A model generated the notes under the pieces. That model worked only from the letters and a program-made list of their open reading frames with translations. It was not told the origin of the DNA and did no database searches. Shown in pieces: positions 639 to 7,419 of a DNA stretch of 7,917 bases. The stretch comes from a virus (lineage: Duplodnaviria; Heunggongvirae; Uroviricota; Caudoviricetes), in IMG/VR virus record IMGVR_UViG_2548876948_000002; one strand, 5' to 3'. Numbering within the stretch: the first letter of the stretch is position 1; every line of letters begins with the position of its first letter. Both the position numbers and the translations under genes were made by a program.

Positions 639-5559
<4,921 letters not shown>

Positions 5560-5568
5560 GGGATGTTT

Positions 5569-5901
5569 ATGACGAGCAAAGAAACCTTTACCCATTACCA
5601 GCCGCTGGGCAACAGTGACCCGGCACATACGGCAACCGCGCCCGGCGGATTGAGTGCGAAAGCGCCTGCAATGACCCCGCTGATGCCGGACACCTCCACC
5701 CGTAAGCTGGTTGCGTGGGATGGCACCACCGACGGTGCTGCCGTTGGCATTCTGGCGGTTGATGCTGACCAGACCAGCACCACGCTGACGTTCTACAAGT
5801 CCGGCACGTTCCGTTATGAGGATGTGCTCTGGCCGGAGGCTGCCAGCGACGAGACGAAAAAACGGACCGCGTTTGCCGGAACGGCAATCAGCATCGTTTA
5901 A
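5569..5901 (+). CDS. D: Head decoration protein gpD
   Basis: 110-aa product [27 protein letters not shown] ... AGTAISIV, ending at TAA 5899-5901. An AAGGGA Shine-Dalgarno-like motif sits at 5558-5563. The ATG at 5563 (MFM...) is too close to that motif, so 5569 is preferred. Confidence 0.9.
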
Positions 5902-5918
5902 CTTTACCCTTCATCACT

Positions 5919-5943
5919 AAAGGCCGCCTGTGCGGCTTTTTTT
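5919..5943 (+). terminator. Intrinsic-terminator-like hairpin in the D-E intergenic region
   Basis: GCCGC (5923-5927), loop CTGT, GCGGC (5932-5936), followed by a run of seven T (5937-5943). It is flanked upstream by AAAG, which could extend the stem with A-U pairs. Confidence 0.5.
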
Positions 5944-5956
5944 ACGGGATTTTTTT

Positions 5957-6982
5957 ATGTCGATGTACACAACCGCCCAGCTGCTGGCGGCAAATGAGCA
6001 GAAATTTAAGTTTGATCCGCTGTTTCTGCGTCTCTTTTTCCGTGAGAGCTATCCCTTCACTACGGAGAAAGTCTATCTCTCACAAATTCCGGGACTGGTA
6101 AACATGGCGCTGTACGTTTCGCCGATTGTTTCCGGTGAGGTTATCCGTTCCCGTGGCGGCTCCACCTCTGAATTTACGCCGGGATATGTCAAACCCAAGC
6201 ATGAAGTGAATCCGCAGATGACCCTGCGTCGCCTGCCGGATGAAGATCCGCAGAATCTGGCGGACCCGGCTTACCGCCGCCGTCGCATCATCCTGCAGAA
6301 CATGCGTGACGAAGAGCTGGCCATTGCTCAGGTCGAAGAGATGCAGGCAGTTTCTGCCGTGCTCAAGGGCAAATACACCATGACCGGTGAAGCCTTCGAT
6401 CCGGTTGAGGTGGATATGGGCCGCAGTGCGGCGAACAACATCACGCAGTCCGGCGGCACGGAGTGGAGCAAGCGTGACAAGTCCACGTATGACCCGACCG
6501 ACGATATCGAAGCCTACGCGCTGAACGCCAGCGGCGTGGTGAATATCATCGTGTTTGATCCGAAAGGCTGGGCGCTGTTCCGTTCCTTCAAAGCCGTCAG
6601 GGAGAAGCTGGATACCCGTCGCGGCTCTCATTCCGAGCTGGAGACAGCGGTGAAAGACCTGGGTAAAGCGGTGTCCTATAAGGGGATGTATGGCGATGTG
6701 GCCATCGTCGTGTATTCCGGACAGTACGTGGAAAACGGCGTCAAAAAGAACTTCCTGCCGGACAACACGATGGTACTGGGGAACACTCAGGCACGCGGTC
6801 TGCGCACCTATGGCTGCATTCAGGATGCGGACGCATTGAGTGAGGGTATTAATGCGTCTCCCCGTTATCCGAAAAACTGGAAGACATCCGGCGATCCGGC
6901 GCGAGAGTTCACCATGATTCAGTCAGCACCGCTGATGCTGCTGGCTGATCCTGATGATTTCGTGTCCGTTCAACTGGCGTAA
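5957..6982 (+). CDS. E: Major capsid protein gpE (HK97-fold)
   Basis: 341-aa ORF MSMYTTAQLLAANEQKFKFDPLFLRLFFRESYPFTTEKVYLSQIPGLVNMALYVSPIVSGE ... FVSVQLA, matching lambda gpE in length and sequence. The track's upstream GTG at 5930 lies inside the terminator hairpin and is rejected. Confidence 0.95.
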   Translation: MSMYTTAQLLAANEQKFKFDPLFLRLFFRESYPFTTEKVYLSQIPGLVNMALYVSPIVSGEVIRSRGGSTSEFTPGYVKPKHEVNPQMTLRRLPDEDPQNLADPAYRRRRIILQNMRDEELAIAQVEEMQAVSAVLKGKYTMTGEAFDPVEVDMGRSAANNITQSGGTEWSKRDKSTYDPTDDIEAYALNASGVVNIIVFDPKGWALFRSFKAVREKLDTRRGSHSELETAVKDLGKAVSYKGMYGDVAIVVYSGQYVENGVKKNFLPDNTMVLGNTQARGLRTYGCIQDADALSEGINASPRYPKNWKTSGDPAREFTMIQSAPLMLLADPDDFVSVQLA

Positions 6983-6984
6983 TC

Positions 6985-7010
6985 ATGGCCCTTCGGGGCC
7001 ATTTTCTCTC
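6985..7010 (+). promoter_or_regulatory. Stable stem-loop with TTCG tetraloop, then T-rich tract, in the E-FI intergenic region
   Basis: ATGGCCC (6985-6991), TTCG (6992-6995), GGGCCAT (6996-7002): a perfect 7-bp stem with a UUCG-type tetraloop, followed by TTTTCTCTC. It sits 3 nt after the E stop and 22 nt before the FI start. Confidence 0.45.
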
Positions 7011-7023
7011 TGTGGAGGAGTCC

Positions 7024-7419
7024 ATGACGAAAGATGAACTGATTGCCCGTCTCCGGTCGCTGGGTGAGCAACTGAACCGTGATGTCAGCCTGACGGGGAC
7101 GAAAGAAGAACTGGCACTCCGTGTGGCAGAGCTGGAAGAGGAGCTTGATGACACGGATGACGCTGCCGGTCAGGACACATCTGTCAGCCGGGAAAATGTG
7201 CTGACCGGGCATGAAAATGAGGTGGTATCAGCGCAGCCGGATACCGTGACTGATACGGCTGATCTGGTCACGGTTGTGGCACTGGTGACGCTGCATACCG
7301 ATGCACTTCACGCCACGCGGGATGAGGCTGTGGCATTTGTGCTGCCGGGAACGGCGTTCCGTGTCTCTGCCGGTGTGGCAGCTGAAATGACAGAGCGCGG
7401 CCTGGCCAGAATGCAATAA
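7024..7419 (+). CDS. FI: DNA-packaging accessory protein gpFI
   Basis: ATG at 7024 preceded by Shine-Dalgarno GGAGGAG at 7014-7020. The product MTKDELIARLRSLGEQLNRDVSLTGTKEELALRVAEL ... MTERGLARMQ is 131 aa; lambda gpFI is 132 aa from memory. The track's start at 6985 is inside the hairpin stem and is rejected. Confidence 0.9.
   Translation: MTKDELIARLRSLGEQLNRDVSLTGTKEELALRVAELEEELDDTDDAAGQDTSVSRENVLTGHENEVVSAQPDTVTDTADLVTVVALVTLHTDALHATRDEAVAFVLPGTAFRVSAGVAAEMTERGLARMQ

Follow-up and report, generated by a model that had tools for sequence, protein, structure and literature searches.

A conserved terminator-type hairpin between genes D and E in the late operon of a lambda-like phage

The lambda late operon, in which the genes for the head decoration protein (D) and the major capsid protein (E) are neighbours, is transcribed by RNA polymerase modified by the antiterminator Q. 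According to PMC9388147, Q-loaded polymerase is termination-deficient and Q narrows its RNA exit channel. A GC-rich hairpin followed directly by a run of T residues, located between D and E, raises the question of what a structure with the architecture of an intrinsic terminator does at a place where read-through is needed for phage growth. Starting from Q antitermination, an earlier note on this DNA had preferred an RNA processing or stability element, or an element that affects translation, over a true transcription stop.

Position, structure and non-randomness of the D-E hairpin

The stretch of DNA that was analyzed (7,917 nucleotides; the window) represents the left arm of a lambda-like phage, from Nu1 to FII/Z, and is collinear with lambda, whose coordinates equal those of the window plus 178. 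This collinearity (Nu1-FII) places the D-E junction downstream of the pR'/qut position in a genome type that encodes Q. The premise of the earlier note was right. Identity over positions 5400-6400, which run from the end of C/Nu3 through D into the first part of E, was 98.4% to lambda (J02459) and 99.8% to the best match, phage ev099. These identities indicate that the window is derived from a relative of lambda rather than from lambda itself. Despite the 98.4% identity of the surrounding 1 kb, the sequence of the D-E spacer is the same as in lambda.

On the plus strand, gene D (5569-5901 in the list of open reading frames; 5747-6079 in lambda) ends with a TAA codon at 5899-5901 and is separated from the ATG of E at 5957 by a spacer of 55 nt (5902-5956). 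After 17 nt of variable sequence (5902-5918), the complete element AAAG-GCCGC-CUGU-GCGGC-U7 occupies positions 5919-5943, which are exactly the extended hairpin and the T-run. It consists of an A-rich 5' flank (AAAG, 5919-5922), the 5' arm of the core stem (GCCGC, 5923-5927), a tetraloop (CUGU, 5928-5931), the 3' arm (GCGGC, 5932-5936), and a directly abutting U7 tract (5937-5943) of the type found in terminator tails. The five G-C pairs of the core can be extended to up to nine pairs, since in the predicted folds the flank optionally pairs with the first four U residues (G5922-U5937, and three A-U pairs of 5919-5921 with 5938-5940). The translation-initiation leader of E (5944-5956) starts with a weak Shine-Dalgarno (SD)-like sequence, ACGGGA (5944-5949), and continues with a second U7 run (5950-5956), so that the ATG is located 14 nt past the last T of the first run. 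Stem, loop, T-run, spacer length, and the distance and weak SD of E had all been described correctly before. Gene E (5957-6982) encodes a protein with 96.8% amino acid identity to lambda E (6135-7157). The list of open reading frames begins E at a GTG at 5930, within the hairpin loop (350 aa), which is a mechanical extension; the true start is the ATG at 5957 (341 aa), matching lambda.

Folding of the region yielded a stable hairpin. The 31-nt hairpin segment had a minimum free energy of -12.2 kcal/mol (z = -3.3; 1 of 200 shuffled sequences was as stable), the core stem of five G-C pairs had approximately -8 kcal/mol, and the whole 55-nt spacer reached -14.5 kcal/mol (z = -2.8). In a context of 180 nt, pair probabilities of the stem were 0.87-0.99. 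A strict motif, defined as a perfect all-G/C stem of 5 bp with a loop of 3-8 nt followed by at least six T residues, occurred once on the two strands of the 7.9-kb window, at the D-E site, with an expectation of 0.003 per dinucleotide shuffle (6 of 2000 shuffles contained any). A generic terminator scan found nine sites in the window where 6.6 were expected, a chance-level result that is uninformative. The D-E site was not among the features returned by the generic promoter/terminator scan of the window, apparently because its stem-extension rule counts four of the seven T residues as stem, which leaves too short a tail. A scan of the whole window with the Rfam covariance models (E ≤ 1) assigned no family to the D-E site and gave only two sub-threshold chance matches, at 4981-5079.

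Short GC palindromes and T-runs do arise at random, as the generic scan illustrates; a chance palindrome that lacks a function can nevertheless be practically dismissed, given the expectation for the strict motif, a stem and U-run that are fixed where neutral sites are 48% identical, and the recurrence of the design in distant lineages. A terminator for leftward transcription was likewise rejected: in that direction only CUUU comes after the hairpin (minus strand), and the A-rich flank is not conserved.

Further hairpins were observed in the late operon. Just 3' of E lies a companion 7-bp hairpin (AUGGCCC-UUCG-GGGCCAU, 6985-7002) with an interrupted U-rich tail, in a spacer with a minimum free energy of -17.4 kcal/mol (z = -2.3). 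The records of phages N15 and HK225 carry a putative terminator at the orthologous position, and the hairpin is conserved in several N15-like prophages. A second small hairpin follows at approximately 7003-7020; it pairs UUUCUCU with the SD of FI (GGAGGAG; start at 7024) and could gate FI translation. In lambda, the I-J spacer (15462-15504) contains AAACCGCC-UGCG-GGCGG-UUUUGUCAUUU followed by the SD of J (GGAG), the same layout as at D-E, and the L-K spacer (14128-14275, 148 nt) folds with -67.6 kcal/mol (z = -3.6). Lambda V, with a spacer of only 15 nt, has no such hairpin. A relaxed scan of the entire lambda genome, which recovered tR2, t0, and the J-lom and lom-stf terminators, identified the D-E site as the sole strong canonical intergenic terminator on the late strand between Nu1 and J. 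The record of N15 lists putative terminators on the same strand after the D homologue and after genes 8 (E homologue), 13 (V homologue), 20, 24, and 26 (within 5980-22113), gene 20 being located directly upstream of the J homologue, and four further ones in the late leader and lysis part (within 41229-45584).

Conservation among close relatives and recurrence in distant phages

Selection on the element was assessed in an alignment of 21 D-E spacers from lambda, N15-like prophages (hosts: Kluyvera, Klebsiella, Citrobacter, Enterobacter, Trabulsiella, Buttiauxella, Pluralibacter, Phytobacter, and Dryocola), Erwinia, and metagenome-assembled genomes (MAGs) of an Aeromonadaceae member and a Marinobacterium. 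As a neutral yardstick, the E genes were 80% identical overall and 48% identical at shared fourfold-degenerate sites (19-20 of the aligned relatives). Among 20 relatives, pairwise identity was 0.96 for the 5' arm of the stem, 1.00 for the 3' arm, and 0.95 for the T-run. The corresponding values were 0.30 for the loop, of which fourteen sequences are visible in the alignment, 0.52 for the upstream spacer, close to the 0.48 of fourfold-degenerate sites, and 0.53 for the A-rich 5' flank. The SD-like ACGGGA was almost invariant. These comparisons indicate that the D-E stem and its U-run are under strong purifying selection.

Standard base pairs were present in 96.8% of the pair cells of the aligned stems. 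The outer flank pairs stay A-U, G-U, or G-C across the aligned relatives, with compensatory changes from A-U to G-C at two outer pairs in two Trabulsiella prophages, and one stem pair tolerates a C-to-U wobble. Because the four inner pairs never vary in the alignable group, the covariation signal is weak, and the argument for selection therefore rests on differential conservation and on the non-alignable analogues described below.

A search of viral contigs with gpE recovered only relatives of at least 97% identity, which are usable for polymorphism and not for covariation. Among 86 lambda-type copies there was no substitution in either arm of the stem, one loop variant (CTTT), and a T-run length of 6-8, while the 17-nt upstream spacer occurred in eight sequence variants. 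Of 5426 complete E. coli genomes, 3200 contain the 140-nt D-E junction, which can occur as many as five times in one genome. In addition, copies of lambda E with approximately 94-99% identity were encountered on short, low-coverage contigs assigned to unrelated taxa such as Neobacillus, Kitasatospora, Bradyrhizobium, Prevotella, and Corynebacterium (L096-L111, L128, L134, L137-L152, and others); these almost certainly reflect contamination of assemblies with lambda DNA.

Beyond the alignable group, a different hairpin with a directly abutting U-run was found at the same place between D and E, down to an E identity of 33%. Phages of the 569R10 type and L133 (E 56-59% identical) carry CCGCC-UCCG-GGCGG-U7, with the loop UGAU in a relative; two marine gammaproteobacterial prophages (L156 and L159; E 41-43%) have long stems followed by U6-7; L160 (E 39%) has GUCGC/GCGGC and U7; an alphaproteobacterial MAG (L167; E 34%) has GGCCC/GGGCC followed by UUUUCCUUU; and Vibrio phage K242 and its relatives (E 33%) have GAGCC-UUUAU-GGCUC-U6, with a loop variant in L172. 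In every lineage with the element, the U-run is on the strand of the late transcript and the end of the hairpin lies 19-28 nt from the ATG of E, whereas, among the canonical cases, the core stem starts 18-54 nt and the hairpin at least 17 nt past the D stop codon. When spacers were scored for an enforced G-C closing pair, a hairpin ΔG of at most -7, and at least five T residues in the next eight, 11 of the 17 temperate-type lineages were positive versus 0.7-17% of shuffled spacers, a difference to which, owing to shared ancestry, no formal probability can be attached.

Two side observations concern the 569R10-type hairpins. The record of phage vB_EcoM-569R10 (ON470596.1) is only 19.9 kb long and includes a complete lambda-type block of protease, decoration, capsid, and FI genes together with its own terminator-type D-E hairpin; it may represent a satellite-like or partial element. 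In lambda, the minus strand between xis and ea8.5 (29112-29125) carries a leftward terminator-like CCGCCUGAUGGCGG plus U6 that is identical in sequence to the D-E hairpin of the 569R10-type prophage L186, probably a convergence on a minimal GC tetraloop hairpin.

The element was absent from the D-E spacers of all eight Casjensviridae inspected (Siskin, Suzuki, Bacata, AVP3, MA11, phiAxp-2, RcPescado, and Saba), as well as from those of KLER1-1 and PPF1; spacer lengths in these phages were 9-60 nt. The three Casjensviridae spacers that were folded (Suzuki, Bacata, and RcPescado) were less structured than their shuffled counterparts (z = +0.6 to +1.5) and look as though folding were disfavoured there. 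In D2-type lambdoid phages and Serratia phage BZS1, a significant hairpin occupies the D-E place and is not followed by a canonical U-tract; z-scores of the D-E spacer hairpins of D2-type phages, BZS1, and L135 ranged from -2.1 to -3.5.

Termination and its alternatives

The best explanation, which we put at slightly less than an even chance, is that the D-E hairpin acts as a genuine intrinsic terminator, one of several in the late operon, which stops polymerase that lacks Q, is read through by polymerase that carries it, and has secondary effects at the RNA level. In an unmodified RNA polymerase that has reached the U7 tract, the GC stem would fold inside the RNA exit channel and cause release of the transcript immediately upstream of E. 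Polymerase loaded with Q at pR' would be prevented from forming the hairpin by its narrowed exit channel and would read through, so that D and E would be co-transcribed in the lytic cycle; since exit-channel hairpins would not form, the element should be no effective stop in that phase. The site would thus serve as a licence check: E would be reached only by Q-modified transcription, and any polymerase that strays or leaks through, as in a lysogen, would be stopped. Once the polymerase has passed, the hairpin would fold behind it, probably shielding D-containing RNA from 3' exonucleases and probably also forming a boundary that keeps the A/U-rich ribosome-binding site of E unpaired.

Several features of the locus are those expected of an intrinsic terminator. 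The GC-rich core stem of 5 bp, extendable to nine pairs, falls within the customary range of approximately 5-14 bp, its 4-nt loop is within the usual 3-8 nt, and the abutting U7 corresponds to the typical tract of approximately 7-8 nt. The element is non-coding, points in the direction of transcription, and begins 17 nt past the stop codon of D, a distance sufficient for folding free of a ribosome that terminates there. Selection acts on just those parts that a terminator requires, the stem and the abutting U-run, a combination characteristic of termination and not of an exonuclease barrier. An exonuclease barrier would not need the U-run, yet this tract is as conserved as the stem; its retention in lineages with a strong SD likewise suggests that it is not merely a translational crutch. 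The preference of the earlier note for an RNA-level or translational element over a true stop was not borne out, because selection keeps the stem together with the directly abutting U-run (95% identity versus 48% at neutral sites). The distribution also points to termination, in that temperate phages that encode Q possess the element and a virulent family does not; such a family, if devoid of antitermination, could not tolerate it. A Q-type antiterminator is annotated in all three element-bearing genomes that were checked, namely lambda, N15 (gene 40), and K242, an N15-like plasmid prophage of Vibrio with an annotated Q-like gene; this association rests on three genomes and tracks phylogeny.

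Other points weigh against a terminator. With a core of five G-C pairs, its efficiency may be modest. The hairpins of D2-type phages and BZS1, in which the U-tract is missing, suggest that a hairpin is valuable here apart from termination. Moreover, a checkpoint between D and E leaves a lysogen exposed to the lysis genes located upstream.

The alternative that survives best, although we consider it rather unlikely, is that the hairpin serves only as a punctuation element at the RNA level, for stability or processing, and that its capacity to terminate is incidental. Cleavage in the downstream U-rich stretch would leave the hairpin as a block to 3'-to-5' exonucleases that stabilizes D-containing RNA; cleavage upstream would place it at the 5' end, where together with the E-FI hairpin it would bracket a stable E message. 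Intercistronic hairpins such as the REP element in malE-malF can stabilize upstream mRNA, and the D-E hairpin resembles that case as a stable hairpin just 3' of a cistron in a polycistronic RNA; it differs in having no REP consensus and in its conserved U-tract, which a stabilizer would not need. An RNA-level role is consistent with the significant D-E hairpins that lack a U-tract in D2-type phages and BZS1, with that of L135, with the two hairpins that flank E in lambda, N15, HK225, 569R10, and several prophages, and with N15, in which annotated stem-loops come after the homologues of D, E, and V, the three virion genes of greatest abundance. It would also explain a terminator-like structure that Q-modified polymerase should ignore (PMC9388147) in the sole phase in which D and E are needed. 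On the other side stand the conservation of the abutting U7, the occurrence in lambda of the same design after the low-copy gene I and before the low-copy gene J, and the lack of such a hairpin at lambda V, whose spacer measures 15 nt. Casjensviridae, furthermore, would gain equally from a stabilizer, yet their D-E spacers are unstructured.

A broader version of the RNA-level reading regards the D-E, E-FI, and I-J hairpins as processing punctuation rather than as fail-safe terminators. They would cut the approximately 26-kb late transcript made by Q read-through into discrete stable segments, and segment stability, in addition to translation initiation, would determine the dosage of capsid protein across lambda-type phages. 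The conserved U-run would then provide the entry point of an endonuclease, and the hairpins would form protective caps at the 3' end of the D segment and at the 5' and 3' ends of the E segment. We judge this version unlikely.

There is only a small chance that the hairpin primarily belongs to the translation-initiation region of E, insulating the leader while the U-runs offer an unstructured, S1-friendly platform that offsets the weak SD of the most highly translated late gene. The weak SD between two U7 runs fits such a role, as does a hairpin-to-ATG distance that stays within 19-28 nt where the distance to the D stop codon varies from 17 to 54 nt. In silico disruption of the 5' arm lowered the unpaired probability from 0.39 to 0.23 for the SD and from 0.68 to 0.53 for the AUG, and a compensatory change restored these values to 0.37 and 0.64, respectively. 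The predicted effect on accessibility was small, however, and the U-tract is kept next to a strong SD (GGAG or AGGA) in K242, L156, L159, and 569R10. The RNAalifold consensus contained the hairpin only, with no conserved pairing of the SD or AUG and no conserved structure that includes or competes with them, and the same design precedes the low-abundance gene J. A weak CCC:GGG pairing that would sequester the SD in the single-sequence fold was rejected, being absent from this consensus and not kept in relatives.

Partial attenuation during lytic growth, in which Q-modified polymerase would sometimes stop and thereby trim E and downstream genes relative to D and upstream genes, appears improbable. 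Its canonical terminator architecture would suit the element to such a role. A virion requires D and E at a ratio close to one to one, with approximately 415-420 copies of each; with low-copy genes located upstream of D, no stoichiometric logic for such trimming is evident. Q-loaded complexes are, moreover, described as termination-deficient in PMC9388147. In favour of attenuation, partial termination is listed as a possible role of intra-operon terminators in the phage L paper (10.1101/2020.10.05.325894).

A very improbable reading makes the hairpin the 3' module of an Hfq-binding small RNA from the 3' region of D. A GC hairpin with at least six U residues is the usual form of such a module, and the text of a lambda RIL-seq preprint provides a precedent in lambda, where tL2a doubles as the 3' end of the small RNA LPR1. 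For lambda infection, the same text names only three phage small RNAs bound by Hfq (LPR1, LPR2, and 6S), none of them at D-E. Hairpin and U-tail are present at the locus; a conserved upstream seed is absent, the region in question having the near-neutral identity of 0.52, and read-through by Q-modified polymerase would not generate an end with a U-tail.

Counterparts in known systems and implications

The D-E hairpin is already known and is, by its motif, an ordinary member of the class of Rho-independent terminators. GenBank records of phages HK629 and 434, in which the hairpin is identical, label the orthologous site as a 'rho-independent terminator', the record of N15 has a 'putative rho-indep. 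transcription terminator' (stem_loop 5980-6004), and that of HK225 a terminator. The N15 and HK225 elements differ from that of the window by one change in the stem and one in the loop, at the same position and with the same T7 run. The lambda reference records (J02459 and NC_001416) do not annotate the element. No experimental basis for the HK629, 434, N15, and HK225 annotations was found in the literature searched, and full-text searches turned up neither a map of RNA ends for the late operon of lambda, nor Term-seq or in vitro termination data for the site, nor a discussion of the D-E hairpin; papers on epsilon34, YA3, Pseudomonas ONT-cappable-seq, and lambda (DNA Research) contained nothing relevant to it. 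What our comparisons add is the strong purifying selection and the recurrence of the design with unrelated sequences.

Classical lambda terminators (tR2 between ren and ninB, t0 of oop, and lom-stf) share with the D-E element the GC-rich stem, the short loop, and the directly adjoining U-run, as well as the orientation with transcription. The core stem at D-E is shorter, with five G-C and four weak pairs versus seven to eight G-C-rich pairs and, unlike the classical sites, it lies inside an essential, co-expressed operon, between two genes whose products are required together, and has to be read through for phage growth. T-phi of phage T7, which follows the major capsid gene 10 and acts as a partial stop for T7 RNA polymerase, is comparable as a terminator hairpin that adjoins the major capsid gene in a long late transcription unit. 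It is located downstream of the capsid gene, whereas the lambda element is located upstream and faces antiterminated host polymerase. The closest parallel in context comes from P22-like phages, for which the phage L genome paper (10.1101/2020.10.05.325894) describes terminators within the late operon whose roles 'are not known' and for which its authors propose either partial termination or a block to non-antiterminated transcription. Those sites are, like the D-E site, predicted, within a Q/gp23-antiterminated late operon, and next to the procapsid gene module; they differ in belonging to a non-homologous head module and in being located at the end of the procapsid module.

For lambda-like phages, the fixation of stem and U-run where neutral sites approach saturation, together with the recurrence of the design, indicates that one terminator-type element inside the late operon is functional rather than incidental. 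With ten stem bases and seven U residues, it offers a small and clean target for studying the role of terminators inside antiterminated late operons. Lambda constructs for D display or expression that include the D-E junction would carry a predicted terminator for unmodified polymerase, and the element is widespread in E. coli genomes and present in the best-studied phage.
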